A stretch of 64,000 nucleotides of DNA from a virus (lineage: Duplodnaviria; Caudoviricetes): IMG/VR virus record IMGVR_UViG_3300006153_000012, positions 1-64,000 of that record; one strand, given 5' to 3'. Position 1 is the stretch's first letter; every line of letters starts with the position of its first letter. The position numbers and the translations under genes are program-made. Shown in pieces: positions 383 to 35,040 of this stretch. A model generated the notes under the pieces. It had not been told where the DNA came from. It worked only from the letters and a program-made list of their open reading frames with translations, and made no database searches.

Positions 383-571
383 GTGATAAAAATTCAATTT
401 TTGATTAATGTTATTGGAATGGTCATTATAGATGTCGGAGCATTTGCATACATGGAAATTTATGATGAAAGTAAAATTTTTGCATTGATTATGTTGATGA
501 TTGGAAACGGCATTGGTGGATATTTATACAAATATAATAAAATCAGTGGAGGAAATAGTTATTGCAGATAA
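383..571 (+). CDS. Small membrane protein
   Basis: Two hydrophobic stretches, SD upstream, overlaps nrdD start. Confidence 0.55.
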   Translation: MIKIQFLINVIGMVIIDVGAFAYMEIYDESKIFALIMLMIGNGIGGYLYKYNKISGGNSYCR

Positions 572-2721
572 TTAAAAAAGATGGAACATTAGAACAGTAT
601 GATGAGCAAAAGATAATTAATGCCTGTAACAAAGCTGCAAGAAGAGCAATGGTTGAATTATCTGATTCCGACTATCAGATAATTTGTAATGCTGTATGGA
701 ATAAATTAGTAGAAAATGATTTAGAAGATACAGAAATTTACGAAATGCATAATATTGTTGAAGCAGTTTTAGAAGAATATTATCCTGTAGTTGCAAAGAT
801 GTATAAGGAATATAGAAATTATAAAAAAGACTTTGTACATATGATGGACAAGGTTTATGAGAGAAGTCAGGCAATTAGATATATAGGGGACAAAAATAAT
901 GCTAATACAGATTCTGCATTAGTTGCAACAAAGAGAAGCCTGATATTTGGAGAATTAAATGGAGAATTATACAAGAAATTCTTTTTAACTTTAAATGAGA
1001 AACAAGCAATGAAAGATGGATATATTTATATTCATGATAGGAGTTCTCGCTTGGATACTTTCAATTGCTGCCTTTTTAGGATTGGCAAAGTAATGAAAAA
1101 TGGCTTTGAGATGGCAAATGTATGGTATAACGAACCAAACTCACTTGATACGGCATTTGATGTTATGGGAGATATCATTCTTTCAACGGCAGCACAGCAG
1201 TATGGTGGATTTACAGTTCCAGAAGTAGATAAAATACTCTCACCATATGCAGAGAAATCATATTGGAAATATAGGAAAGAGTATGCAGAGGTATGCGGAT
1301 ATATTGAAAAAGATAATGAGACTAAGATTACTAATACTTCCAGTGCTGAAGAATGGGTTATGAAAAAGATACAGCGTGATTTTGAACAGGGATGGCAAGG
1401 AATTGAATATAAATTGAATACGGTTGGTTCAAGCCGAGGCGATTATCCTTTTGTTACGATGACTATTGGGTTAGCAACAGATAAATTTGGTAAGATGGCG
1501 GCTATTACATTGCTAAATGTACATAAAGAAGGTCAGGGAAAGAAAGGATTTAAGCGTCCTGTGCTGTTCCCTAAGATTGTGTTTTTGTATGATAAGAATC
1601 TGCATGGAGATGGTAGTGAAAAATATTCGAGTGCAGATGTATTTAATGCAGGAATAGCATGTAGCAGTAAAACAATGTATCCTGATTGGTTGTCATTGAC
1701 AGGAAATGGATATGTACCAGAAATGTATAAGAAATATGGTAGAGTAGTATCACCTATGGGCTGCCGGGCATTTTTATCGCCTTGGTATGAGAAGGGCAGT
1801 ATGTATCCAGCAGACGATAATGATAAGCCAATATTTGAAGGAAGATGTAATTTAGGGGTTATTTCACTTCATTTACCTATGATATTGGCAAAAGCAAGAC
1901 AGGAATCAAAAGATTTTTATGAAGTTTTAGAATATTATCTTGAACTTATCAGAGGGTTACACAAGCGTACTTATGATTATATTGGAGAACTTAGAGCAAG
2001 TGTAAATCCAGTGGCTTTTTGTGAAGGTGGTTTGTATGGTGGACATTTAAAGTCAGAAGATAAAATTAAATCAATACTTCCACCGATGACTATGAGTTAT
2101 GGAATCACAGCACTGAATGAATTACAGAGATTATATAATGGTAAATCTATCCGTGAAGATGGCGAGTTTGCATTAGAAGTAATGCGATTCATTCAACAAT
2201 ATATAGACAGAATTAAAGAAGAAGATAAGATTTTATATGCAATCTACGGCACACCAGCAGAAAGCCTTTGCGGATTACAGATTGAACAATTCCGTAAAAT
2301 ATATGGAATTATTGAAAATGTATCAGACAAGCCATATGTAAGCAATAGTTTTCACTGTCATGTATCTGAGCAAATGTCTCCCATTGAAAAACAGGATAAG
2401 GAAGAAAGATTTTGGGAGTATTTCAATGGAGGAAAGATTCAGTATTGCCGTTACAATCTAGGATATAACATAGAAGCGATTAAGACTTTGGTTCTTAGAG
2501 CGATGGAGAAAGGTTTCTATGAGGGGGTGAATCTTGCAATGTGTTATTGTGAAGATTGCGGTCATCAGCAAGTAGAAATGGATGTCTGTCCTAAATGTGG
2601 AAGTGAGAAAATAACTAAGATTGACAGGATGAATGGCTATTTAGGGTTCACAAGAGTACATGGAGAAACGAGATATAATCCTAGCAAAGTGGCAGAAATC
2701 ACAGATAGGGTGTCGATGTGA
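562..2721 (+). CDS. nrdD: Anaerobic (class III) ribonucleoside-triphosphate reductase
   Basis: N-terminal ATP cone, PMGCR and GRCNLG cysteine motifs, CxxC...CxxC zinc site, RMNGY glycyl-radical motif. Confidence 0.95.
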   Translation: MQIIKKDGTLEQYDEQKIINACNKAARRAMVELSDSDYQIICNAVWNKLVENDLEDTEIYEMHNIVEAVLEEYYPVVAKMYKEYRNYKKDFVHMMDKVYERSQAIRYIGDKNNANTDSALVATKRSLIFGELNGELYKKFFLTLNEKQAMKDGYIYIHDRSSRLDTFNCCLFRIGKVMKNGFEMANVWYNEPNSLDTAFDVMGDIILSTAAQQYGGFTVPEVDKILSPYAEKSYWKYRKEYAEVCGYIEKDNETKITNTSSAEEWVMKKIQRDFEQGWQGIEYKLNTVGSSRGDYPFVTMTIGLATDKFGKMAAITLLNVHKEGQGKKGFKRPVLFPKIVFLYDKNLHGDGSEKYSSADVFNAGIACSSKTMYPDWLSLTGNGYVPEMYKKYGRVVSPMGCRAFLSPWYEKGSMYPADDNDKPIFEGRCNLGVISLHLPMILAKARQESKDFYEVLEYYLELIRGLHKRTYDYIGELRASVNPVAFCEGGLYGGHLKSEDKIKSILPPMTMSYGITALNELQRLYNGKSIREDGEFALEVMRFIQQYIDRIKEEDKILYAIYGTPAESLCGLQIEQFRKIYGIIENVSDKPYVSNSFHCHVSEQMSPIEKQDKEERFWEYFNGGKIQYCRYNLGYNIEAIKTLVLRAMEKGFYEGVNLAMCYCEDCGHQQVEMDVCPKCGSEKITKIDRMNGYLGFTRVHGETRYNPSKVAEITDRVSM

Positions 2722-3809
2722 GATATTTAGTATATTGTTATACAAACAAAATTAACAATAAAAAGTATATTGGTACAACTTCTCGTTCGATTGATGAACG
2801 AGAAGCAAGCCATATATACGAATCAAGAAATAAATCAAATAAATGCTATAATGCTCCATTTAAAAGGGCAATAAGAAAATATGGTATTAATGGTTTTACA
2901 AGAGAAATTCTTAATGTTGTAGATTCATTAGAAGAAGCATGTGAATTAGAGAAGTTTTATATTAAAGAATATAAGACATACTATAAATATAAAAATTCAA
3001 ATGGGTATAATGCAACTTTAGGCGGAGAATTGTTACAAATGCCAAGAGATAGAGTAGTACAAATTGATTCAAATACATTAGAAATATTAAAGATTTGGGA
3101 TAGCGTTGCATTAGCAGAAAAAGAACTAAATATTAGCATATATGATGCTGTTAATAATTATTCAAGAATGTCGAATAACTCTCATTGGATATATGAAAAT
3201 AATTTTGATGTTAATACATATAAAGAAAATATTATGCTAAGTAGAAATTATGTTTGTCAAATTTCAATAGAGAGAAAATTAATACATATATGGAAAAATG
3301 CAAAACAAGCATCGGATAATTTAGGATTGTCTCAAGGAAATATTTCTATGTGTTGTATTGGATTAAGAGAGACTACAAATAACAATTATTGGTGTTATTA
3401 CAGAGATTATATAAGTGATAATTTCCCGATTAAAGAAAAAGACACAAATAAAAAGAGGGTTATTCAATTTAATGATGAAGGAGAAATACTTAAAATTTGG
3501 GATTCGATGACTGAAGCAAGTAATTCTCTTAAAATACAATTAGGAGATATATCTGAATCTTGTAATGATCATAAACACGCAGGTGGTTACCTATGGAGAC
3601 TATATGATGATTATAAAGGAGAAGAAGTTAGTTATACAAATAGAAAGCAAACAAGGGTTGAAAAACTTGATAACGATAAGAAGGGTATTTGTATATATGA
3701 AAGCATTGGAGATGCAGCCAGAGACGTTGGAGTAAAATATCCTGGTATATGTAGGGCAATCAAAAATAATTGTAAATCTGGTGGTTTTTACTGGAGAAAG
3801 GTGGTGTAA
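2718..3809 (+). CDS. Free-standing GIY-YIG homing endonuclease with NUMOD1-like repeats
   Basis: LVY...KKYIG motif and YNAT-GG at the N-terminus; repeated V-Q...IW-S...A..L modules; sits between nrdD and nrdG. Confidence 0.85.
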   Translation: MRYLVYCYTNKINNKKYIGTTSRSIDEREASHIYESRNKSNKCYNAPFKRAIRKYGINGFTREILNVVDSLEEACELEKFYIKEYKTYYKYKNSNGYNATLGGELLQMPRDRVVQIDSNTLEILKIWDSVALAEKELNISIYDAVNNYSRMSNNSHWIYENNFDVNTYKENIMLSRNYVCQISIERKLIHIWKNAKQASDNLGLSQGNISMCCIGLRETTNNNYWCYYRDYISDNFPIKEKDTNKKRVIQFNDEGEILKIWDSMTEASNSLKIQLGDISESCNDHKHAGGYLWRLYDDYKGEEVSYTNRKQTRVEKLDNDKKGICIYESIGDAARDVGVKYPGICRAIKNNCKSGGFYWRKVV

Positions 3810-3811
3810 AT

Positions 3812-4387
3812 ATCAATTATCATAATATTACTTATCCAGATATGAATAACGGAAGTGGTTTGAGAGTCGTGTTATGGCTCTCAGGCTGTTCTCACAGATG
3901 CAAGGGATGCCAAAATCCTCAAACGTGGGACGCTAATAGTGGTATCCTATTTGACGAATCAGCAAAAGAAGAATTGTTTAGGGAACTCGATAATGATTAT
4001 ATTTCGGGTCTGACACTGACGGGAGGTGATCCGCTTTTTGAGAGTAATCTTGATGGTGTTTTAGATTTAGTCACTGAAATAAATAAACGGTACAATATAT
4101 CACAGGACACCCACGAAATCCGTCTTTCAATTCCTCGGAAATCTATATGGTTATATACAGGATTTATATGGGAAGAAATAAGAAATGGTAATATGGAAGA
4201 TGGCTTAAAATATGGTGAATGGACTAAAAGAGCAAAAATTATTACAGAATGTGATGTTCTCGTAGATGGCAAATACATAGATTCCCAACGTGATCTGACC
4301 CTTCAATATAGAGGCAGTAAAAATCAAAGACTCATCGACATTCAGCAATCATTACAAAAAGGTAAAATAGTATTATGGCAAACATGA
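3812..4387 (+). CDS. nrdG: Anaerobic RNR activating protein (radical SAM); probable ATC start
   Basis: CSHRCKGC CxxxCxxC motif, LTGGDP; frame extends upstream of ATG 3842 as (I)NYHNITYPDMNNG after SD GGTGGTG. Confidence 0.9.
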   Translation: MNYHNITYPDMNNGSGLRVVLWLSGCSHRCKGCQNPQTWDANSGILFDESAKEELFRELDNDYISGLTLTGGDPLFESNLDGVLDLVTEINKRYNISQDTHEIRLSIPRKSIWLYTGFIWEEIRNGNMEDGLKYGEWTKRAKIITECDVLVDGKYIDSQRDLTLQYRGSKNQRLIDIQQSLQKGKIVLWQT

Positions 4388-5733: not shown

Positions 5734-5858
5734 ACTAAATAACTTGCTATTTATCATCCTGTGCTAAAATATATTATCTTTTATCATCCTAATTGTGGTA
5801 GTAATTGTGGTAGTAACCAAGAGTATTAAAATAGAAATACATATCTTGGAAGTGTACA

Positions 5859-5870
5859 AAACATCTGTTC
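5859..5870. promoter_or_regulatory. LexA (SOS)-like box upstream of integrase
   Basis: AAACATCTGTTC, one mismatch to Firmicute GAAC-N4-GTTC, beside a TATAAT -10. Confidence 0.5.
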
Positions 5871-5899
5871 TGTGATATAATTTAAAAAGGAGGTTATCT

Positions 5900-7051
5900 A
5901 TGGCAAAAAAAAGAAAAAATGGAGAGGGAACATGGGGTACAAAGATAATCAAAGGTGAGACTTTTAAATTCTATCGAGATACAGATGGCAAATACACATA
6001 TGGTAAAACAGATGCAGCCATTAAAAAGAAATTGTTAGAAAAATCTCATGTTCAGGAAATAGCAAAGCAGGAAATAACATTTGGAGAGTATATTTTAGAA
6101 TGGTTAAAAAAACTTAAAACAAGTGTAGAACAGACAACATATAATTCTTATGAAGATGCAATTACCACCAGATTAATTAATTATAAGAAATATGATTTAT
6201 CAAATGTTTTATTATGTGAACTTACAGATACGATGTTTCAAAACTATTTGGATGCATTAGCGCAGGACTACTCTCTAAACAGTATTAAGAAAACATGGTC
6301 TTTAATAAAAAAATGTGTTTTATATGGAGAAATCAGAAAAGACATACCTGCGCTTCATTTAAAGGAACTAATAAAAGTACCTTCAGAATCAAATGTTGCC
6401 CATAAAAGAAAAGAGATAAGTGTACCAACAGTTGAAGAAGTTGAATTTATATACAAAGAGTGTAAACACTTGGATAGTAATGATAATATGTGGTATGGTA
6501 ATGCGGCATATGTTATTATACTTATAATGTATACAGGAATGAGAATATCTGAAGCCCTTGCTTTAAAATGGTCTAATATAAATATAAAAGACAATATATA
6601 TACTATTGATATAAATTCTTCTCTTGCTAAAATACGTTCTATAGATAAAAATGGTAATAACATATATACTCATTCTATCAAGGCGACAAAATCATCAAAA
6701 AGTAAACGCAGCATTCCGCTTCCGGACAGGGCGATAGAAGCTATTTGCTTTTTCGAGAAATTTAAGAAAAATAATGATGATTTCGTCTGCGTAACAAGTA
6801 ATCATACACATTATCAAAGAAGAAATGTAGAAAGAACATTAGAGAGAATCATAAAAAATTCTGATTGTCGAGACAAAAATTATACTTTACATTCTCTAAG
6901 ACATGGATATGGATCAATTTTATTGTCAAAAGGTGTTGATATAAAAATTGTATCAGAATTACTCGGACACGAAGATATTTCATTCACATATAATGTTTAT
7001 ATTAAAGCATTCGAGCAAGATAAAAATAATGCTGTAATGAAATTGAACTAA
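5900..7051 (+). CDS. int: Tyrosine integrase
   Basis: YTGMRISE, HSLRH, LLGH and TYNVY catalytic motifs; SD AGGAGG. Confidence 0.95.
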   Translation: MAKKRKNGEGTWGTKIIKGETFKFYRDTDGKYTYGKTDAAIKKKLLEKSHVQEIAKQEITFGEYILEWLKKLKTSVEQTTYNSYEDAITTRLINYKKYDLSNVLLCELTDTMFQNYLDALAQDYSLNSIKKTWSLIKKCVLYGEIRKDIPALHLKELIKVPSESNVAHKRKEISVPTVEEVEFIYKECKHLDSNDNMWYGNAAYVIILIMYTGMRISEALALKWSNINIKDNIYTIDINSSLAKIRSIDKNGNNIYTHSIKATKSSKSKRSIPLPDRAIEAICFFEKFKKNNDDFVCVTSNHTHYQRRNVERTLERIIKNSDCRDKNYTLHSLRHGYGSILLSKGVDIKIVSELLGHEDISFTYNVYIKAFEQDKNNAVMKLN

Positions 7052-16378: not shown

Positions 16379-18757
16379 TTAATATTTTTTCATTTCCTGT
16401 AAAATCCTGTTATGTGCACGCATGCTTACTATATCCGAGAAATCTTCTGGGTTCTGTACGCCATGTACATGGATTCCGCCGACATCGACATTCATGTTTC
16501 GGTTCATGGTGCTGTTATTGTTGATTACCTCGACAGCCTTCTCCATGGCTTCTGCCGCATTATTCATGGCATATGCTGGCCTCATAAATGCGTCCCTGTT
16601 CGCACTGAAATATTCCTCGAATTTCTTTATCATTTGATATTCCCTGTCATCTGGTGTGAGTGGGTACAACGTTCTTCCATCCTTAGTGATGATGGTTCCA
16701 TCCACCAGTTTGACATTTCCATTCTCATAAGTCTTGAGCACTTCACCCTTATTTTCCATGATCTGTTCGGTCTGCTCTTCATTGAAAATAACGGTGCCTT
16801 TTGGAAGATCCCCCATGGTTGGCTCAGTGGTAAGTTCCGCCCTGCCGTCAGGGTACACGGTAAGTTCCGGCTGCCCGTACTCAGAACGCAGGGCATTCCT
16901 CTCGTCATTTGGAAGTCCTTTATACCCTCCCGTCCCTCTTGCGAACGCCTTTCCGACCGTGCCATCTGCATGCGCCGGGACTGTGCTGCCGGACACGGCG
17001 ACACTGACGGACGGCATCCCGGATGACTCCAGCGTCTCTGAGAGGGCACGCAGGGAGTTTGCCGCGGCCGCACACTGATCCTGTATGGAGTCCGCCATCT
17101 TCCTGACCATCTCGACAATCTTCTCACATATGGACTGGATGGATCTGTCGCCGTCAGTCGCGAAGTCACTGAAGGCTTTCAGCCACGGGTCTTCCAGCTT
17201 GGATGCCACCTCATCCCCGCCTGTCTGCATGATGTCTATGATGCTCCCGCCGTTGCCGCCCGGCTCGGAGCCGCCGCTGTTCCTGATGGGCTTGCTGCTC
17301 CCGGCTTTCTTCCCGGGGTCACTGCCGTCACCGCCGCCCACACCGATGATCTCCGCAATGCGCGCCTGCATTTCCTCCCATGCGGGAAGGTACTCCTCCG
17401 TTATCTTCCTGATCTGGTCATCGAAGGACGTGTTGCCGATGTCCAGTGCCTGGCTCAGGCTGTCCATCTGCCCCTGTATCGTTGTGACCGCATCGGATAT
17501 GGCTGACGCAAGGCCAATGAACCCTGTCCCTGCCGGTGCCGCGTCACCATCTGTCATGGCGTTCCCATCCCCCATGGACGCGGCAGTGCCTATGACGGCG
17601 GAGAAGTCTATCTGTCTGAATTCAGCACATTTCAGCGCAATGTCGCCGAAGGCGGATGCAGTGTCCCTCAGCTTCTGCACATACCCCTCATCCCCGATTT
17701 CCGGGAACTTTATGCTGCCAAGCTGGGTGACAACCTCATCAACCAGCTTCTTCAGCTTCTCCAGTTCCGTGCCCAGCGGCGCGATGCTCTCGGACATGCC
17801 AGACACGCCCTCCTGTATACCGCCCACTGCGGCGGATGCCTCCCCTGCGCTTGTGGCAAGTCCTGCCGCAGAGTCCTTCACGTCACTGACGCTGTTGCTA
17901 AGACCGTCCAGTGTGACTGCCCCAAGGTTCTCAAACGCACCCTTGGTTGACTCAAGGTAGCTGATGGAGTCCGCGCTGACCCCGGAAAGCCTTGACAGCT
18001 GCTCCAGGATGCCGTCATTGCCACGGCTCATGTCCGCAAGGATGCCCACATAGGCGGCCTTCAGCTTCTCAAATTCCTCCTGTGAGCCGCTTAAAAGCGC
18101 GTCCATGTTGATGCCGAGTTCAGAAAGTGCCGCTTCCATCTGTGCATTCTCAAGCAGGTCTGTCAGTTCCTCGAACTGTGACTTGTAGTCCTCCATGCCC
18201 TTTATCATGGCATCGTAGCGTTGCTCCTCTTTGGCGATGATGTCGTCATAATGTTTATTGACTTTCTCGGCTTCCTTATCCAGTAAGTCAATTTTGTCCT
18301 GACGCAGTTCCTTCTCCAGTTCCAGATAGTCTATTTCCTTCTCAATTTTGGAAATGTCAATTTCGAGTTTTATATCCTCCACTTCCTGCTTCGCGTCACG
18401 GATGCCTGACGTGTCAGCCTGGTATGACATCTGGCCGTCCTTGTAGACGAGATCCGTCCTCTGGTTCTGCATACGCTGCAGGTCGTATTCCGCTTTCTGC
18501 AGGTCAAGGGAACGTTTCCGTTCTTCGTTTGCGTCCTGCATCGCCTTGATCTCTTTTTCCTTGGCCTCTATCTGTTCCTCGATGCCCTCAATCTCGGTTT
18601 CATACTGCTCCTTCTTGGCTTCTATTTCCTCAAGCCTTGCGTCACGTTCCGCTTCAATGGCAGATATCGCGGCATCCTTTTCATCATTGATTGCGTCTAT
18701 GCGCTTGTCAATCTGCCTCGTGATGTAGCTGAAGGCGGACTCATAGAGGGATTTCAT
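16379..18757 (-). CDS. Tape measure protein, exon 3 (792 aa)
   Basis: Coiled-coil and Gly/Ala-rich TMP C-terminus; starts ATGAAATCC directly after the intron terminal G. Confidence 0.85.
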   Translation of the reverse strand: MKSLYESAFSYITRQIDKRIDAINDEKDAAISAIEAERDARLEEIEAKKEQYETEIEGIEEQIEAKEKEIKAMQDANEERKRSLDLQKAEYDLQRMQNQRTDLVYKDGQMSYQADTSGIRDAKQEVEDIKLEIDISKIEKEIDYLELEKELRQDKIDLLDKEAEKVNKHYDDIIAKEEQRYDAMIKGMEDYKSQFEELTDLLENAQMEAALSELGINMDALLSGSQEEFEKLKAAYVGILADMSRGNDGILEQLSRLSGVSADSISYLESTKGAFENLGAVTLDGLSNSVSDVKDSAAGLATSAGEASAAVGGIQEGVSGMSESIAPLGTELEKLKKLVDEVVTQLGSIKFPEIGDEGYVQKLRDTASAFGDIALKCAEFRQIDFSAVIGTAASMGDGNAMTDGDAAPAGTGFIGLASAISDAVTTIQGQMDSLSQALDIGNTSFDDQIRKITEEYLPAWEEMQARIAEIIGVGGGDGSDPGKKAGSSKPIRNSGGSEPGGNGGSIIDIMQTGGDEVASKLEDPWLKAFSDFATDGDRSIQSICEKIVEMVRKMADSIQDQCAAAANSLRALSETLESSGMPSVSVAVSGSTVPAHADGTVGKAFARGTGGYKGLPNDERNALRSEYGQPELTVYPDGRAELTTEPTMGDLPKGTVIFNEEQTEQIMENKGEVLKTYENGNVKLVDGTIITKDGRTLYPLTPDDREYQMIKKFEEYFSANRDAFMRPAYAMNNAAEAMEKAVEVINNNSTMNRNMNVDVGGIHVHGVQNPEDFSDIVSMRAHNRILQEMKKY

Positions 18758-18999
18758 CAAATCTGTTACTTTCACCATGACTGGCTACTGACTATGTGCA
18801 TACATAGCGGATAGTCATTTCTGGCTATCTTTCACATTTCATTTATTTGGGATTATTGTGTGAGTTCGGACTGGATCTTCACCCTCCCTGATAGGGTAGG
18901 GGAGTAACGGAACCTTATATGCTTTGTATCACAATATAAGGTATTACAGTCTCTACGGATTCTGGTTTTAGATAATACTAATTTAAAAATAAATATACC

Positions 19000-19161
19000 C
19001 AAAAAACACCTACCGAAGTAGATGTTTTTGGAACCATAACCTTGTTATGGTTTTCTACATTTGATTTGCCATTAATCTATGCCTCGCATAGACATGCTTT
19101 TGGTAAACTCTTTCGTTCACCTTAGTAATATTATACTACTACATCTCTGATAATATGTCAA
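19000..19161 (-). ncRNA. Putative small RNA downstream of the PemK-like gene
   Basis: TTGACA-N17-TAGTAT promoter, two hairpins, then a UUCG-loop hairpin with U-run. Confidence 0.45.
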
Positions 19162-19162
19162 T

Positions 19163-19903
19163 TCAAAATTTAAAACTCAGATTTTTATTTATAGCCTTTA
19201 TTATGTTATCAAAACATTTATCAGTAGCAATGCCCAAACATTTGCTGTCGATTCGCTTCCTGTCTATCGCCCGTATATGCATTACATTTACGAATCCATA
19301 TATCCCGTTGCTGTTTCCCTCTAACCTTAAAGGAATTTCATAAAAATCTAAATATTTATTCTTTATCGCGCCATCTTTTACTATCTCAATATAGTATTTT
19401 CGTTTTACATCATCCCATTTGACTTTTTTTTGGTGTGTTGTCACTGGGGCAATAATTGTGATATTGCCTTTAATGTTCCCTGTATTGTTTTGTAATATGA
19501 TTACTGGCCTACGTCCATTTTGCTCACTGCCAATATTGTCTCCTAAATGGGCATAAAAAATTTCTTTTTGAGCGACCGTATATTTTCTTGTGCTTAAGTT
19601 TATATTTCTTGTTCTATTTACCCAAGCCAAATAATCTATATTCTTCTGCATTTTTTCTAAATAGATTGCCTTATTAGTTGTTTTTACAAACATTTCTCTT
19701 GATAATTTTCTGAATTCCTTTATTAATCTATTCTCAAGATTTTTACACTCCCGGTCATCTTTCATAATAAAAAGAATTCTATTTATTATGTCTGATAATG
19801 TTGACTCGACCATTTCCTTTTCAGCAGAATTGTTCCTGTCAATAGAATTTGTAAATTTACGTAATATGCGGATTAAATCATCATATAATTTTTCAATATC
19901 CAT
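19163..19903 (-). CDS. PemK/MazF-family toxin with N-terminal helical extension
   Basis: IFYAHLGDNIGSEQNGRRPVIILQN...IAPVT; likely start MDIEK. Confidence 0.85.
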   Translation of the reverse strand: MDIEKLYDDLIRILRKFTNSIDRNNSAEKEMVESTLSDIINRILFIMKDDRECKNLENRLIKEFRKLSREMFVKTTNKAIYLEKMQKNIDYLAWVNRTRNINLSTRKYTVAQKEIFYAHLGDNIGSEQNGRRPVIILQNNTGNIKGNITIIAPVTTHQKKVKWDDVKRKYYIEIVKDGAIKNKYLDFYEIPLRLEGNSNGIYGFVNVMHIRAIDRKRIDSKCLGIATDKCFDNIIKAINKNLSFKF

Positions 19904-20108
19904 TAGTATTCCCCAATCATCAGCATTATAATATCCCATTATATACCAATAATTGACATAATACTACAAGAACATACATTCTAAAACCTTTATTATTATT
20001 ATTATATCTAAAACCAGTCTTTCCTCGGTCTTAACGTTCCCATACGCCTTTAACCGATATAGTTACTTTTCATTATGCTGCATTACTGCAGCAGATGGCA
20101 TGTAATCC

Positions 20109-23084
20109 ACCATCAAGGTACTGATGCTCATACTTCTCATATTCCTTCAGGTATTTCTCTTTGTCGCGGAAATACTTGAGATAGAGCCTGCGGAGTGCAT
20201 CCAGATATTGTTTTTCCGTGATTTTCCCACGGTCTTTCAGATCATCAAGGTCTTTTAGTTCCTTCTCGAATGACTCTAAATATGCATCTGCTGCTTCCTT
20301 GCCGGCTTTCCCTGCTGACTTTTTACCACCTCCGGCATTGGAGAAATCAACTTTAGGCTCATAATTGATCTTGCCTGCTGATTCTTTGATAAGCGCCTGT
20401 AACATTGCCGCCCGTGCAATCTTGAATCCTATGTCCAAAGGATCAATTGTGCCGCTTGCGACCTCCTGATAAATCTGCTCCAATTCAGTCAGATATTTAA
20501 TCACTTCACCCGTATAACCTGCATTCTCCGCAAGGGTTCTCAGGTTCGCAACCTCGCCATCTGTGTTCATAATCTGCATGTTGTACAGTTCCTTCTGGAA
20601 CGTGAGCATCGCAATCGCCTGTGACGCATTTTCAGTAGACACCATCTCATTTGCAAATGCGGCAATCTGTTCTTCTGTGGCTCTTGCAAGGTCAATCCCG
20701 GCTTCCTTCAATGCTTCCTTCAATGCCTCCGTGTTGCTTATCAAGGCTTCAAACGCCACCAATTCCTCATTGACAACACCCAAGTCTTCCAGTGCGGCTT
20801 TCAGTGTTTCAAAGTCCTCCGCGCCTGATAACGCCGCCTGTGTGATGGAAGCAGCAAGGGAGTCAAATGCAGTCTCTACATCCTGCTCCGTTGACTCAGA
20901 ATTGCGCAATACCCTGACAAAATCCTCATAGGAAGAGTAGTCTACATCAAGATTTAATCCTTCTGGGTCAGACATCTCGTCTAGTTTAGACTTAATTGCG
21001 TCACATGTTGATAGGATGTCTATGCTGTTTAGTGCGAACTCATCATCCGTGAAGATGGACTGGTATGCGGATTTCAGGGAATCGAATGCGGGTTTCAGCT
21101 GGGTGTTTAGCTGATCGATGGTGGAAGAGATGGATGAAATGGGGTTTTCAATGTTCGATGTTGAATCTTGAACTTCTTTAATCTTAGCAACAAGTTCATC
21201 CCAAGATAGAAGAGTACCCTCTGGAACTTCTACCTGTTCTGCCGCAATGTGCAGTTCTTCAAGTGTTAATTCTCCAACTTTGTCATCAAAATCATCTTGG
21301 AGTTTTTCTTTTACGTTGTTGATTAGTGGTTGGGTATCGTCTACTTTTGCTTGTAAATTAACAGAAATTGGGTGTTCTGAACCAAAATACTCTTGAACTT
21401 TAGCAATAGCTTCTAATAATTCACCAGAATTTAAACTCCCAGAATATATATTAGCTAAAGCTTCTGATACTTCTGAATCATTAATATTATTGATTGAGAA
21501 TAAGATATTACGTCTTAAATATTCACTAACAGCTTCCCAATCATTTTTATCAATGCCTTCTGGTAAACTTGACCAATCAAAATTGAAAAGTGTGTCTTGT
21601 ATTGCTTTTTGTAATCCACTATCTTCAATCTGATTGTAAGTAAACTCAGTCTGTAACCATGTATTTAAATATTGATTAATAGACGATGTTTCAGCTTCAA
21701 ACTGTTGCTCTGCATATTTTACATCGTCAGATGCCTTGTTAAATGCAGATACATAAGCATCTTTTATACCAGAAAGATTTGGTATATCACCACCATCTTC
21801 TAATTCCAGTTTATAACCAATGATTTGACCCATGCCATCTTTTAAATTTACTTGTTTTGCTGTTATACCTAATTTTTCAAGTAACTCTATATATTGACCA
21901 AGTTTTAATGCAACTGGATCTCCATTTGCATCTTTAGCATTTCCATTAATATCAAAAGCAGTATAAATCCCATATTTATTTATTTCTTCATATGCTCTTT
22001 GGATTTCATCTCTTGTCTTTTTAGCATCTTCTTTTTGTTTCTCTAAATCAGAAACATTATTAGAATAACCAGCAAATAAGTCTGGCATCTGTTTCATGAT
22101 TTCTTGATTTGCCAATACACGTTGTCTTTCAATTAAATCATCTAATGAACCAACGATAGTATCTACATCACCAGATAGATCAAGTATAGCAACACCATTT
22201 TCATCAAAATTCTTTGTTAATGAAGGATAAAGTGTTGATAACTGATTGCTTAACTCTAAAAATCTCTCATATTTTTCAGTAGAAAGATTTTTATTTTCAT
22301 TAGTTAGTAAATTAACTCCTTGGGCAAGTTCAGCATATTCTTTGGCAATTTCTTTAGTTTTTGATGAATTTTCACTAAATGTATAGTTTATTTCATCAAT
22401 TGCATTTTTGGCTTCTTCATAAGCTTCTTTTATTGCCTTAGCCGCTTTTTCTTGTTTAACCTTGTTTACTAACGCCGCACCACCACATAATGTTAATGCT
22501 GCTGTAATACTAGCAATAACAGGATGAGCCTGTGCAATAGTTAAAATACCAGTACCCAGTCCTTTTAGTGCAGTACCAGCACCTTTAATTTTAGCACCTA
22601 TACCTGCAAGTAAAGAAGCAGACTCTTTTTGGTTTGCTAGAGTAACACCAGCTTTTGCAGCAATTAAATTAGCTTCTGCCTGTGTTAATTTACCAGTAGC
22701 AACAAGTTCCTTTAATTTTGCGGCTGTCACAACATTGGTAGCCGTAGCCTCTGCCGTTTCAGAAGTGATAAGTCCAGTATTAATCAACAACGCTTCTGAT
22801 TGATCTTTATTTCTCTTTTTTGTTACGAGTATAGCATTAAGTTCAGCAGTAGTTAATTTGCCAGTAGAACCTAATAATTCTGCCTGTGATAAAATTGCCT
22901 GTTTCTGTGCAAGATTAAGTCCTTGTGTTGATAATACCAATTCTGCTTGCTTTGCGTTTAATCCTTTTAAAGCTGTTGCATATGCAGTTATATTTGTAGC
23001 ATTTAATTTCAAATTGCTGAGTTCGTTTATTTTTCTTCCAGCAATATAAACATCTTCCAAACTTTGTCTAATTGTTTTGAATAT
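20109..23084 (-). CDS. Tape measure protein, exon 2 (992 aa)
   Basis: Long helical Ala/Leu-rich ORF; no SD before its ATG at 23087; joins both neighbours in frame. Confidence 0.85.
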
Positions 23085-23165
23085 CATACTAATATATGTT
23101 ATACTTGTGGAGAGTATAACGTCCTCTTGTGGAGAGAGGATATTGATTCCCTTGTGGAGAGGGAA
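23071..23165 (-). repeat. 3' splice-site module copy 1 (restores TMP frame) with three CUCCACA-loop hairpins
   Basis: AGTATG|ATATTCAAAACAAT; loops at 23106, 23128 and 23153. Confidence 0.85.
23077..23105 (+). promoter_or_regulatory. Sigma-A-type promoter overlapping the splice-site module
   Basis: TTGAAT-N17-TATACT with extended TG. Confidence 0.65.
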
Positions 23166-28231: not shown

Positions 28232-29779
28232 TCAACACCTCTTCATTTCATAAACATTTAAACTAACAATATTATTTTCAAAAAACAATTCTTCTAAATC
28301 AATATTAAAAATTCTGCCATTGCAAAAAGAATCACAATTTCTACATTCTTCATTAAATGTATAAAAAATTTTCCTATGGGAACGAGTTGTATTATCTTTT
28401 GAGGGTGTAATAATAAAACCAATTTTATTTTTATTTTCTATCTTTTCATTTAATGAATCTATATTTTCTTCTAAATGTTTTAAAGAAGAACATGTATTGC
28501 ACATAATAGTAGTGCAATGATATCGTTCTGAAAGGGTAGCAGCATTATTAGTAAGATCGTTTGAAGGGTTACATGCTGGCAATATTATAAAGTCACCTTG
28601 TAATATTCTTGTAAGATTCATATAGCAATCATCATCAATATCTTTGCATATATAAGTTAATATTCTTCCAAAATTATTAATATCTATTACATGTATATTG
28701 CAATCATGAATTAAGTGTTCACTAAAAATTATTTTTTCCTTAAAATCATGCGAAAAAAGAAAACTATCTAGCAAACATTTCTGTTCGACATTTGAACAGT
28801 TTTTTATAATTGTTTTAAAGTCATCTTCGGAATATTTTAAATCAAAAGGTATTTTCTTATAATATTGAAAAATTTCCATGCTTTCATAAAATACATGGCA
28901 TATATTATTTCTATTCTCCCAAACACTTCCACAAAAAACAAATTTAATGTCTTGTTCATGTAATTTAGAAATAATCGAATTAATTATCTTTTCTGTCATA
29001 AGCATTTCTGGAAATATAAGGAAGTCTATATTATCCGATAAATTTTCAATAAACTGATTACATCTTTCAATAATTTTCCCTTCAATATTATCTTTCATAT
29101 TGTTTATATTAAATTTCATATTTTCAGTATATGTAATGTTAAAAATGTCATGCAAATTAGTATTCAAAATCGGGCATATAGCAATTCTTAGTTCTTTCTT
29201 ATTGTAAATGCGATTTATAAAATCTTCATATTCAATTAACTCATGAATTGTTATATTATAATCATCATCAAAAATTATATAACTTTTCAATTTACTATTA
29301 ACCGATAAACTATCATATTTTTTTCTTTCTCTTAAATAATTATTTTTATATTCTTCTTTATATATACTGTTGAAATCTTCTCGATAATTAGATAATAAAA
29401 CGGGATAAATTTTTATCTTTTTATTATATATTTCGTTAAGGCTTTTATATGTTTTAAATTGATCATCTAAATAAGTTGAATTTCTATAATTATAAATTTC
29501 ACATGAATCAATTGATATCAATAAACAATAATATTCTGTAGTGGATAAAGGTTTATAATTTAATGATATTAATATTGCCTGTTTTAAATATTTAAACGCA
29601 TAACAAGGACTGAATTGTTTATCTTCTAAATATTTATTTAAAATTTTATTGAAAATGTCCATGGTAGATTTGTCGTATACATTATTTATATCAAAATTTT
29701 TATCCTCAATTATATGTGCATAGCATATTGCCATGATATCATATATGTTTCTTGCAGACTCAAGTTCTTTGGTAAACAT
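28232..29779 (-). CDS. Protein with C-terminal carbon-nitrogen hydrolase (nitrilase) domain
   Basis: FLIFPEML (E), YYKKIP (K), TYICKD (C) triad; likely start MFTKE after GGGGG. Confidence 0.7.
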   Translation of the reverse strand: MFTKELESARNIYDIMAICYAHIIEDKNFDINNVYDKSTMDIFNKILNKYLEDKQFSPCYAFKYLKQAILISLNYKPLSTTEYYCLLISIDSCEIYNYRNSTYLDDQFKTYKSLNEIYNKKIKIYPVLLSNYREDFNSIYKEEYKNNYLRERKKYDSLSVNSKLKSYIIFDDDYNITIHELIEYEDFINRIYNKKELRIAICPILNTNLHDIFNITYTENMKFNINNMKDNIEGKIIERCNQFIENLSDNIDFLIFPEMLMTEKIINSIISKLHEQDIKFVFCGSVWENRNNICHVFYESMEIFQYYKKIPFDLKYSEDDFKTIIKNCSNVEQKCLLDSFLFSHDFKEKIIFSEHLIHDCNIHVIDINNFGRILTYICKDIDDDCYMNLTRILQGDFIILPACNPSNDLTNNAATLSERYHCTTIMCNTCSSLKHLEENIDSLNEKIENKNKIGFIITPSKDNTTRSHRKIFYTFNEECRNCDSFCNGRIFNIDLEELFFENNIVSLNVYEMKRC

Positions 29780-29903
29780 AATATCCCCCTTCATTCTATA
29801 TTTATCTATTAAAATTATAATATACAAATTCAATTATTGGAAGAAACATATGTTTGAATATGGTAAAATTTGGAATTTAATTGCAACTATGCACACTTTG
29901 ATA

Positions 29904-29915
29904 GAACTTATGTTC
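29904..29915. promoter_or_regulatory. LexA (SOS) box
   Basis: Perfect GAAC-TTAT-GTTC between divergent genes; second variant AAACATATGTTT at 29844. Confidence 0.65.
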
Positions 29916-30000
29916 TGCTTTGAGATATAGTTTATATCAATAATTGAGATATGTCAATACTGTATAGGCAGTATTGTAACAATAAGGGCGGTATTTAAAC

Positions 30001-32312: not shown

Positions 32313-33043
32313 TTTTGGACTACTGGATTCCACTCTGGTAGTCCTTTGGCTTGTCTTGTTTATATGATTCTCCGTTTCTTCCCTACGGCTAGGAGAAATC
32401 CTTACATTATTCTATTCCTTCTATAATAAGTATAGTTGCTATTAAGAAATAGAAGAGTAGCATCACTCTTTTGGTTCATGCTTATATTATTAGGCTCCAC
32501 CCTAATAATATACAATCTATTTCGGTTCTATCTTCTTATCAACTCCGATAGTGAGAGTTCCAACAAATGTGTAAGACGTAGGAGATAAGATTCCTAACAG
32601 CAATTACTAACCGCTACACTCGGCAAAGTCTGGATCACTCCTTGCAGCATTAGGAATTTCACCTAATGCCACCTGCCCTGATGCTCTCTGAGATTAGCAC
32701 TCATCTAGTGAGATTTCCATCCTTAAAAGGATTTCTGTACATTCTGTACGCTGTCATCTGCTCGTTATTGTCAAATATCACATTGTAACTATAGCCGTTT
32801 GTGTTGCCACTTAGGAGAGTAGTGATATTTGTATACCAACTTTCAAGACCATTAATTGCTAAATGGTGTATCCATAATGCAGAGGGATACCATATCTGCT
32901 ATACTTATAAAAAGTATACGGTGGTTAATTCCACACGAGATTCAATTGTGTATTTCACAAAGGATAATATTTAAAACTTATTCTTTGAATAAGAACCAAT
33001 ATTACAACAGGCATATTCGATATGAGGGATTACGTTTTACCCT
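32310..33043 (-). ncRNA. Large structured RNA, putative ribozyme core of the giant intron
   Basis: ~730 nt with no credible ORF and many stems (e.g. GCAUUAGG/CCUAAUGC, 12-bp stem with GUGGAG loop), starting at the 5' splice site. Confidence 0.7.
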
Positions 33044-34978
33044 ACCTGTGTTTTTAAACCCAGCAAATAATCCTGCTCCGAGTCCGATAGATCCAAACAA
33101 CCCAAGTTTGGAGGTTAGTGTGTCGATGATGTTCATAACTGATGTTAATCCGTCAACGACTGTTTTCATGTCACTTCTTTTAAAGAGGTTTTGGGCTACT
33201 GATGTGGATGTTTCGGATAGGCGGTTGAGTTTGAAATCGAGACTATCCATAATTACTGACATTTCTCTATCTGCTGATCCAGCACTATTTTCCATCACTT
33301 CAATAGCAGAGCGGATTTGATCAAAATTTTTGATCATTGCCGCGCCTACTTGAGCACGATTTTTCCCAAATAATTTGTTAAGTAATTCATTTTGTGACTT
33401 TGCATCAATTTCGTCCCAAATGTCAGAAATATCACCAAGGTAATCAACTAAATCTCTGTATTCTGTTTGGGAAGAATCAGTAAATAAAGAAATTCCTTGA
33501 CCATTATTACTTGCAACTTTTGTCAAATCAATGACCTCGCCCTTAATATTAGCAAGATCTTCACTAAATTCTTCAGTTTCCTCGTCATAAGACCTAACAC
33601 GCAAAGCGATTGAACGGATAGCATTACCTACCTGTGATGCATCTTGAACAATTTCTTGTGCTCCAGTAAAAAGTGCAATATTCGACTCGATTGTTCCTCC
33701 AACGGCGGCCATTGCAGCAGAAGATTTTCTTAAACCTTCGGCTATTTCTGCGTTAGAAGTTCCAAATTTGTTACCTACGTCATTGATTTTACTAAGTATT
33801 CCATCTAATACATCATCAACTTCTACATCATAAGCACGCATCATAGATACTAAAGAAGTAGTGGCTTCGTCAACATCCATGCCTGGTGAGATGCTTGCAA
33901 ATTGGGAACTGAATTTTGCCATTTTTGTAGCTGCCTCACCGCTAGAAAATCCGAGCCTTGACCAGGCGGAACTTTGATTAATTATCTCCTCAGTAGTAAC
34001 CCCCATCTGTTTTGCTACTTTATTAGAAGAATAATAAAAATCTTCCAGCTCACTATTTGTCATAGTAGTAGTCTTTTTCAGATCCACCAAAGCAGTATCC
34101 AGTGCCTTAACAGTTCCTAATCCACCCTTAACAGACTGGATCGCTTTCATTACCAAGAAAGTTGAACTCGTCCAATAGCTAAATGAACTCATTCCTTCTC
34201 TCAAAGTCTGAAAGAATGTTTTTCCTAGTTTTCCAGCATTACGGGCTTGTACAACTGCATTATTAAACTCCTGATTTAACTTTGCAATTTCTTCTCTTGT
34301 AAGCTTTGCACCTTGTGTAGTTTCATTAAATATTCTCATAAATTCTCCGGAATATTTAACAGCTTTGCCATTTTTACTCATAAAATCATTAACTTGATTG
34401 TGTAAAGAAGAAATAGCAGAGTCCTTAGCCATTTCAGCATTCATTTTACGAACATCATTAGTAATTTTCTGATATTCAGTATCAAGCTTTTTGCTGGACT
34501 CGATTAATCTTTTTTGTGTTGCTTCTGACTTGTTATTTGCATAAGCTTCTGATGCTTGTGTTAATTTTGTCAATGCATCACTCAATGCAGCGGTGTTAAT
34601 CCTTGCCTGACCTTCACTGTCAGTCCATTGTCTCGTCCTTGCAATCAGAGTTTCAACTTTGGATTCATATCCGCCTGTCTCCATTGAAAGTTGAATTTTA
34701 TCGGCTCTTGATGTTGCGTTATTTACATCTCTGATCACTTGGTTTATCGAAGATAAAATCTTGCTTGTATCAATATTTAATTTTCCTGAGCTTGCTTGAT
34801 TTAAAGCAGTTTGTATCTGTTTGGCAAAATTTTGTAATTCCTGCTTACTTGCTGATGTGTCTAATACAGTTTTTAGATTTATATTTTTACTTTCAAGCTG
34901 TCCTTTTAGCTTATTTAGATCTGTTATTGCATTTGATGTATCTAATCGTGTAATTAATTGGACAATAAATTCATCCAT
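33044..34978 (-). CDS. Tape measure protein, exon 1 (645 aa)
   Basis: TP901-type TMP domain (LDTALVDLKKTT...WSRLG...AKFSS); SD AAAGGAG; ends KNTG. Confidence 0.9.
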
Positions 34979-35040
34979 ATATTTCAGGACTCCTTTCAAA
35001 TAAAAAACTCCCATGCTCTATCATGAGAGTTTATGATTCT

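Follow-up and report, generated by a model that had tools for sequence, protein, structure and literature searches.

Group I introns of phages are usually viewed as selfish elements maintained by homing endonucleases, and in the td intron of phage T4 the open reading frame (ORF) is located in P6. Such introns are already known in tape-measure protein (TMP) genes, where they occupy several sites in Bacillus cereus-group prophages (TMP-IVS1/2/3; Tourasse and Kolsto 2008, PMC2504315). Here, we analyze a 64,000-nucleotide stretch of viral DNA, referred to as the window, which is the first 64 kb of the 78-kb IMG/VR record IMGVR_UViG_3300006153_000012 (estimated completeness, 48%). Its TMP gene contains a group I intron of 1,351 nt (positions 18758 to 20108, minus strand) whose endonuclease slot holds a conflict module, namely, a long MazF/PemK-like toxin gene and a small RNA gene. 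We propose, with a probability of about 0.6, that an autonomous toxin-RNA cassette is parked in the P6 loop of this intron, with the small RNA as the probable antitoxin, and that it represents a module of the toxin-antitoxin (TA) or abortive-infection type.

The introns of the B. cereus group, which belong to subclass IA, resemble this IA-like one in residing at several sites in the TMP genes of temperate Firmicute phages, and in having P1 and P10 elements adapted to each site; many of them also lack a homing endonuclease. They differ in being ORF-less or in encoding GIY-YIG or H-N-H nucleases, and none has been reported with a toxin or a small RNA gene (PMC2504315). The T4 td intron with its endonuclease I-TevI (NC_000866) is a phage group IA intron, likewise with a looped-out ORF that has its own expression signals, and it is likewise missed by the Rfam model RF00028, but its cargo is a GIY-YIG homing endonuclease driving mobility, in contrast to the MazF-like RNase and the small RNA present here. 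A further likeness is to IStrons and other cargo-bearing group I introns, in which a ribozyme lets foreign DNA sit in a gene without destroying it. In IStrons, the 3' side is fused to an insertion sequence as cargo, and alternative 3' splice sites exist, whereas here a toxin-RNA cassette lies within P6 and there is a single 3' splice site. A full-text literature search found neither a MazF and small RNA cassette in the endonuclease slot nor the toxin-RNA pairing itself.

The boundaries of the intron are defined by the two exons that flank it on the minus strand, both of which belong to ORFs matching PHROG tape-measure families (ORFs 20073 to 23087 and 16379 to 18778). Exon 2 (20109 to 23087; 993 codons) stops on a codon boundary at 20109, and exon 3 (16379 to 18757) begins at 18757 in the same frame. 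In a related phage (L161), the gene is a single unbroken ORF of 1,679 aa that reads ...YLDG MKSL..., with GGC|ATG across the site; the two phages agree at every one of the final 60 residues of exon 2 (100% identity), and exon 3 is 64 to 72% identical (64% when compared with the contiguous L161 protein). Since both exons abut in L161 without a gap, the 1,351 nt are missing there to the base. The in-frame join YLDG|MKSL had been proposed in a previous sequence-only reading of the window, and the contiguous ORF bears it out independently. The last base of exon 2 is T in the window and C in L161, and the T provides the U.G wobble expected for a group I 5' splice site. In the internal guide (20094 to 20108), the P1 strand GCCAUC (20099 to 20094) pairs with GAUGGU at the end of exon 2 (20114 to 20109), placing the wobble U20109.G20099 at the 5' splice site, while the P10 strand GGAUUACAU (20108 to 20100) pairs with the start of exon 3, AUGAAAUCC (18757 to 18749), at eight of nine positions. 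The 3' terminal base of the intron is a G (18758). The guide is a run of 15 continuous nucleotides that pairs with both exon ends, and we calculate a chance probability of ~1e-5 for 14 of 15 such pairs when the register is fixed. Because this pairing is accompanied by helices that covary across relatives, the sequence comparison excludes a chance pattern as the origin of the predicted intron.

We evaluated the ribozyme fold in an alignment of 18 nonredundant members of the intron family with their P6 loops trimmed, using as a control 3' partners shifted by 1 to 3 columns. Over P2, P3, P4, P5, P6, P7, P7.1, P8, P9, P9.1, P9.2, and P9.3, standard pairs fill 92.5% of the helix cells, versus 31 to 39% in the shifted controls, and compensatory changes are seen in P2, P3, P5, P6, P7, P7.1, P8, P9, and P9.1 to P9.3. 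P2 (20076 to 20093) is a hairpin with a GUAA loop in which all six pairs show compensatory changes. The following segment (20025 to 20066) comprises the 5' strand of P3 (20066 to 20062), P4 (20057 to 20052 with 20030 to 20025; 100% paired and invariant), an A-rich J4/5, and P5 (20047 to 20044 with 20037 to 20034; 94% paired, with covariation in four of four pairs). P3 joins GUAAC (20066 to 20062) to GUUAC (18908 to 18904), bridging the 1-kb cargo and forming a pseudoknot with P7, with 99% of its cells paired and covariation in four of five pairs. The long stem that had been read as looping out about 1 kb is present and corresponds to P6, although it measures 13 bp (20017 to 20005 with 18974 to 18962) rather than 12; it closes a cargo loop of 1,030 nt, and its outer pairs covary.

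The 3' half of the ribozyme (18758 to 18974) starts with the second strand of P6 (18974 to 18962) and continues with P7, P7.1 (18942 to 18912), the second strand of P3 (18908 to 18904), P8 (18901 to 18882), P9 (18864 to 18831), P9.1 (18829 to 18810), P9.2 (18807 to 18792), and P9.3 (18785 to 18774) up to the terminal G. When this half is folded by itself, the minimum-energy structure includes P7, P7.1, P8, and P9 to P9.3. P7 (18953 and 18951 to 18947 with 18873 to 18868), in which 100% of the cells are paired, consists of five pairs, four invariant and one with a single compensatory change, plus one bulged base and a closing pair that changes from G-C to A-U in 4 of the 18 sequences; with its bulged nucleotide, it is the predicted guanosine-binding helix. 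P7.1 is 96% paired, and P7.1, P9, and P9.1 covary at almost all positions. We describe the intron as IA-like because of the extra P7.1 hairpin between P7 and the second strand of P3, together with P9.1 to P9.3, a label that reflects hairpin features rather than a comparison with subclass references. The P1, P10, P3, P4, and P7 elements all lie within 1 nt of where the sequence-only reading had placed them. We are confident that the insert has a group I ribozyme fold in which splice-site recognition is intact, and the intron-less L161, the guide pairing, and the covarying helices uphold the original assignment of a group I intron in the tape-measure gene.

The intron belongs to a sizeable family. 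At least 117 viral contigs share a motif spanning P4, P5, and P4', and a related 3' half is also recognizable in 79 of these 117 loci. By blastn, neither the region nor its 3' core matched GenBank phages, and intron profiles showed no significant similarity to the T4 td and nrdB introns. Other phages have introns of this family at different sites in their TMP genes (L269, L230, L180, L212, and L272), a spread that matches the pattern described in the B. cereus group (PMC2504315).

The main cargo gene (19163 to 19903, minus strand) encodes a long MazF/PemK-like protein of 246 aa, which comprises a four-helix N-terminal region and a C-terminal MazF domain of 135 residues. Its homologues place the start at 19903 (MDIEKL...), 7 nt after a GGGG, and not at 19939. 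PemK_toxin (PF02452) matches residues 124 to 252 of the 258-aa frame with 59.1 bits (cut-off, 23.1), and a PDB profile search matches B. subtilis EndoA (5.5e-23). The AlphaFold2 model (pLDDT 86) has a MazF-fold match in Foldseek (E 6e-9; TM 0.8 on target), and a VIA fold search returned MazF-mt1 (Z 16.1; rmsd 2.9 over 112 residues), MazF/Kid proteins (Z 14 to 16), and CcdB, with the type III toxins more distant (CptN, Z 9.1; ToxN, Z 6.2 to 6.6). R144 and T167, which align with EndoA's catalytic Arg and Thr, do not vary among 34 family members; in B. subtilis MazF, we take Arg25 and Thr48 to be the catalytic residues. The barrel contains an insertion of ~25 aa. We are confident that the MazF domain is intact, and the protein is a predicted endoribonuclease that would be toxic to the cell. 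Matches to the NCBIfam MazF/ChpB models were subthreshold only, and PADLOC returned no match for the toxin. As anticipated, the cargo is a MazF/PemK-family protein with no recognizable homing endonuclease: Pfam and PHROGs give PemK/MazF alone, and no LAGLIDADG, GIY-YIG, HNH, His-Cys, PD-(D/E)XK, or Vsr-like domain was found in it. At 90% identity, the protein family resolves into 99 clusters, and most of its proteins have 243 aa and come from Lachnospiraceae, Blautia, and Eubacterium. The closest homologues are 77 to 99% identical; relatives in viral contigs were found by alignment-based scans and not by a single-protein scan.

The N-terminal extension of ~110 residues, which had been predicted to be helical, is modeled by AlphaFold2 as four helices with a pLDDT of ~85 to 94. 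It is conserved across, and limited to, the long-MazF family, in which a short form of ~198 aa keeps just the last two of the N-terminal helices. A phmmer search of 1.84 billion proteins with this domain gave 12 matches, all in the same family or short fragments, with no sign of a free-standing antitoxin domain; a protein atlas search gave scores below 0.8, and VIA returned generic helical proteins only (Z<6), with no antitoxin fold among the matches. These searches lend no support either way to the initial suggestion that the extension is a fused inhibitor or sensor. There is also no protein antitoxin gene beside the toxin, in line with the first description of the locus: the ~100 nt between P6 and the start codon are too short, the ~190 nt after the stop codon are occupied by the small RNA, and the loop has no other ORF.

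The small RNA gene (19001 to 19161, minus strand) stands directly after the toxin stop codon. Its promoter, TTGACA-17-TAGTAT(AAT) (-35, 19161 to 19156; -10, 19138 to 19130), is the top-scoring promoter-like site in the region and precedes a structured RNA of ~125 nt made up of three hairpins (SL1, 19121 to 19102; SL2, 19093 to 19075; SL3, 19052 to 19032) and a UUCG-looped terminator (19025 to 19001). A profile of this RNA matches only directly 3' of toxin-family genes, at 12 places (the window, L001, L002, L003/L084, L004, L081, L082/L280, L083, L087, L279, and L281); the 11 loci besides the window include nine different sequences. When 11 sequences are aligned, the -35 TTGAC does not vary, pairing reaches 97 to 99% in two of the hairpins, and compensatory changes occur in 17 of the 23 predicted pairs. 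The covariation score of 0.431 compares with 0.217 in shuffles, none of 500 of which reach it, and with at most 0.218 for slid partners. The RNA corresponds to no Rfam family, and the only tandem repeat between 18700 and 20200 is a (TTA)5 run, with no repeats of the ToxI type.

The toxin is not an orphan: a conserved, separately promoted small RNA gene accompanies it at every close relative. In two bacterial genomes, the toxin-RNA pair stands alone among housekeeping genes, flanked in one by an ABC solute-binding protein and an aminoacyl-tRNA synthetase gene, and in the other by genes for a TPP enzyme and for DHFR with thymidylate synthase; judged by this setting, the isolated chromosomal pair resembles a typical chromosomal TA module. 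At L087 (5001 to 5358), the toxin is truncated at its 5' end to the last ~60 codons, and the small RNA gene and its promoter are intact, an order of decay that would be expected if the small RNA is the antidote. The short-form toxin in L003 is also accompanied by the RNA, and in five more distant toxin relatives (33 to 41% identity), the stop codon is immediately followed by a promoter, an RNA rich in hairpins, and a terminator. We regard the small RNA as a better antitoxin candidate than the N-terminal extension and as likely to be the antitoxin of the toxin. As a separate observation, the RNAs that follow distant long-MazF genes in L086 (5012 to 5270) and L282 (872 to 1130) contain repeated UCUAAAU-GCU-AUUUAGA hairpins, with an extra copy in the leader of the next gene.

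Upstream of the toxin lies a promoter/leader cassette (19904 to 20004, minus strand) with an AGAAT-N4-GTTCT box (19982 to 19969), the element TTGGTATATAAT (19949 to 19938), and a GGGG ribosome-binding site (19914 to 19911). This region has a 76% mean column identity with the regions upstream of the cargo genes in L212, L279, and L001, and an ~85-nt cassette with an AGAA(T/A)-N4-GTTCT box is conserved in all four phages. The near-LexA box GAACATACATTC noted previously is present at 19970 to 19981 and shares in this conservation, but such boxes are not significantly overrepresented in the window (4 LexA/Cheo-like boxes versus 1.65 expected); three of the four are promoter proximal. We are confident that the cargo is an autonomous transcription unit or a pair of units. 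Elsewhere in the window, a LexA/Cheo-like box lies at 5858 to 5871, ~30 nt upstream of the tyrosine integrase ORF (5900 to 7051), and a perfect AGAACTTATGTTCT box lies at 29903 to 29916, ~70 nt upstream of a cargo ORF (28232 to 29833, minus strand) in another intron of the TMP gene (intron 1).

How does this pair compare with known TA systems? With type II MazEF/PemIK systems, such as those of B. subtilis EndoA/YdcE and S. aureus MazF, it shares the MazF domain, by sequence and by fold, and the catalytic Arg and Thr, but it has no MazE/PemI gene, and it adds the helical region of ~110 aa, the barrel insertion of ~25 aa, and the downstream small RNA. With the type III systems (ToxIN, CptIN, and AbiQ), the likeness consists of an endoribonuclease of MazF/Kid-related fold, a noncoding RNA, and the lack of a protein antitoxin. 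Type III systems serve in abortive infection and are known from Firmicutes and from mobile elements. Each of their antitoxins consists of tandem direct RNA repeats encoded ahead of the toxin in a shared operon, with a terminator in between, and is processed by the toxin, whereas the RNA described here is nonrepetitive, lies downstream, and has its own TTGACA/TATAAT promoter. We accordingly rejected the following assignments: a type II MazEF operon, for want of a protein antitoxin; a canonical type III system, as the RNA is nonrepetitive and on the wrong side of a toxin whose Pfam family is PemK and not ToxN, AbiQ, CptN, or TenpN; a type I system, given that no antisense match was found; and a homing-endonuclease intron, as the cargo lacks such a domain.

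Related introns show that the P6 loop can hold different cargo. Their P6 loops carry nuclease ORFs of the Vsr/DUF2726/DUF5889 type or of the NUMOD/I-HmuI type. A sister intron (L212, 7543 to 8585; L362, 200 to 1720, from IMGVR_UViG_2600255157_000002) with 80 to 81% core identity lies in a TMP-like gene and contains in P6 an ORF with an NYN/PIN-like RNase domain (3e-19), preceded by the same promoter/leader cassette as the toxin of the window; after the NYN ORF come a TTGACA-17-TATTAT promoter, a hairpin RNA of ~90 nt, and a terminator. Several side observations concern this family. A 49%-identical NYN homologue stands outside introns in L365 (347 to 1400), with a consensus promoter, a hairpin RNA of ~110 nt, and a terminator directly after its stop codon; the RNA has AAUCAGAAAGUAG, resembling the conserved AAAUCnAAnGUAG linker of the MazF-associated RNA. 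A related TMP intron in L269 (7182 to 7610) carries in P6 an ORF with a PBECR3 RNase domain (barnase/EndoU/colicin-E5/RelE-like), which is another nonhoming cargo of the RNase type. In a close relative (L275, 3381 to 4724; also L262), the 1.34-kb P6 insert has no ORF longer than 64 aa.

The MazF cassette, in turn, has other homes. In L002 and L004, it follows the tail-fiber genes just before the endolysin gene. In L003 (2730 to 5751), L279 (411 to 4434), and L001 (1818 to 5934), it lies 0.5 to 2.5 kb past the end of the homologue of TMP exon 1, the position at which this phage has intron 1, a 10-kb cargo intron; the core of intron 1 shows no nucleotide similarity to these three cargo loci. Isolated copies of the cassette in bacterial chromosomes and at phage moron sites make the intron one of several parking places for it. 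The initial idea of a toxin concealed in a splicing-protected loop is revised accordingly, in that splicing is not a specific hiding place for this gene.

Taken together, we propose the following model. The group I intron would be removed as RNA, rejoining TMP exons 2 and 3, and its P6 loop, the slot of endonuclease genes in relatives, may have been taken over by an autonomous cassette of three parts: a promoter/leader with an operator-like palindrome, the long MazF gene, and the gene for the ~125-nt small RNA with its own promoter and terminator. In a lysogen, the promoters of the cassette itself would drive its expression, uncoupled from the late tail operon and possibly under the control of the operator. 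The small RNA would restrain the RNase, probably by binding the protein in a type III-like manner, as those systems have toxins of the same fold (CptN, Z 9.1); we favor action on the protein because a search for conserved antisense matches to the toxin mRNA found none. The RNase could then be freed by a trigger, for instance, stress, an infecting phage, or the element being lost. During the lytic cycle, the late transcript would read through the internal terminator and then splice, a step that may be regulated. The intron could in this way serve as a safe parking place, with splicing preserving the essential tail gene while the cargo exchanges.

Several observations weigh against this proposal. 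The intron contains an intrinsic terminator (19025 to 19001) oriented in the same sense as the tail gene, which late transcripts have to pass. The small RNA is unlike known type III antitoxins in having no tandem repeats and in being downstream of the toxin, and its covariance model misses the RNAs beside the distant toxin relatives, which are too diverged. Among the loci examined, a set without the closest homologues (77 to 99%), the MazF cassette is inside P6 only in this phage. A weaker point is that RF00028 yields no match to the region, either at the gathering score or at E≤10. This model also misses the td and nrdB introns of T4 at the gathering threshold (NC_000866, 134000 to 148000; L361), as well as compact members of the present intron family, and its gathering score is reached by 2 of 20 loci sharing the P4-P6 motif. 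We give the blank little weight because the same model misses both proven T4 introns and the compact family members; it says nothing against ORF-bearing phage introns.

The alternatives concern, above all, the identity of the antitoxin. The N-terminal helices could be the true inhibitor or sensor, acting as an intramolecular antitoxin, and the small RNA could have another job, such as controlling other transcripts or read-through into exon 3. The conservation of this domain across the family and its confinement to it, the retention of its last two helices in the short forms, and the lack of an identified mechanism tying the small RNA to the toxin protein are consistent with such a role. We nevertheless consider it unlikely, as the RNA accompanies the toxin at every close relative, including the stand-alone chromosomal copies, persists beside the truncated toxin of L087, and is still present with the short-form toxin of L003. 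The fold search with the domain, which returned generic helical proteins (Z<6) and no antitoxin, says little either way. In type I systems, the antitoxin is typically an RNA of about this size that has a promoter and a terminator of its own, and the small RNA might instead block translation of the toxin mRNA as an antisense RNA. This reading is quite improbable: duplex energies with the toxin leader are no better than with shuffled leaders (eight loci), the longest exact complementarity to the toxin mRNA is 7 to 9 nt at positions that are not conserved, and the RNA is encoded on the same strand as the toxin gene with no overlap with the mRNA leader.

Other readings question the intron itself. 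If the insert were not spliced, the TMP gene would be split, and either dead or expressed as two polypeptides, and the group I features would be a relic. The terminator inside the intron and the fragmentary phage record (48% complete) would fit, but the core helices, the guide, the U.G pair, and the terminal G are all intact and covary with those of relatives, and the TMP exons are in frame and conserved, making a relic very improbable. That the MazF-like protein works for the intron, whether as its homing nuclease or as a maturase, is hardly credible. It does sit in the slot that holds nucleases in relatives; however, the same cassette occurs far from introns, in bacterial chromosomes and beside tail-fiber and lysis genes, the protein has no homing-endonuclease domain, and the cassette brings its own promoter, RNA partner, and terminator.

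If the small RNA is the antitoxin, as we favor, the implications extend beyond this phage. Given that a long MazF and the small RNA are strictly paired at a dozen loci, and that the protein forms ~100 clusters across Lachnospiraceae and phages of this group, an RNA antitoxin is predicted for the most thoroughly studied family of type II toxins. In the sister intron, the same promoter precedes another RNase module, which suggests that the intron offers exchangeable accessory genes a neutral docking site inside an essential gene. More tentatively, and at somewhat less than even odds, we speculate that a long MazF neutralized by a downstream, nonrepetitive, structured RNA transcribed from its own promoter constitutes a new class of TA system, that this cassette and the NYN-RNA cassette are exchangeable P6 cargoes replacing homing endonucleases in the TMP introns of gut phages, and that such cargo could stabilize the intron by addiction.

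The wider genome context is that of a phage that we call temperate by its gene content, because of the tyrosine integrase gene at 5900 to 7051. The TMP gene is very long and lies on the minus strand, and a Pfam PhageMin_Tail match is located at 33002 to 35014. Near the start of the window (562 to 3809), the 3' end of nrdD, encoding an anaerobic ribonucleotide reductase (562 to 2721), is overlapped by a GIY-YIG/NUMOD homing-endonuclease-like ORF (2718 to 3809), which is followed by an activase-like radical SAM gene (3842 to 4387).

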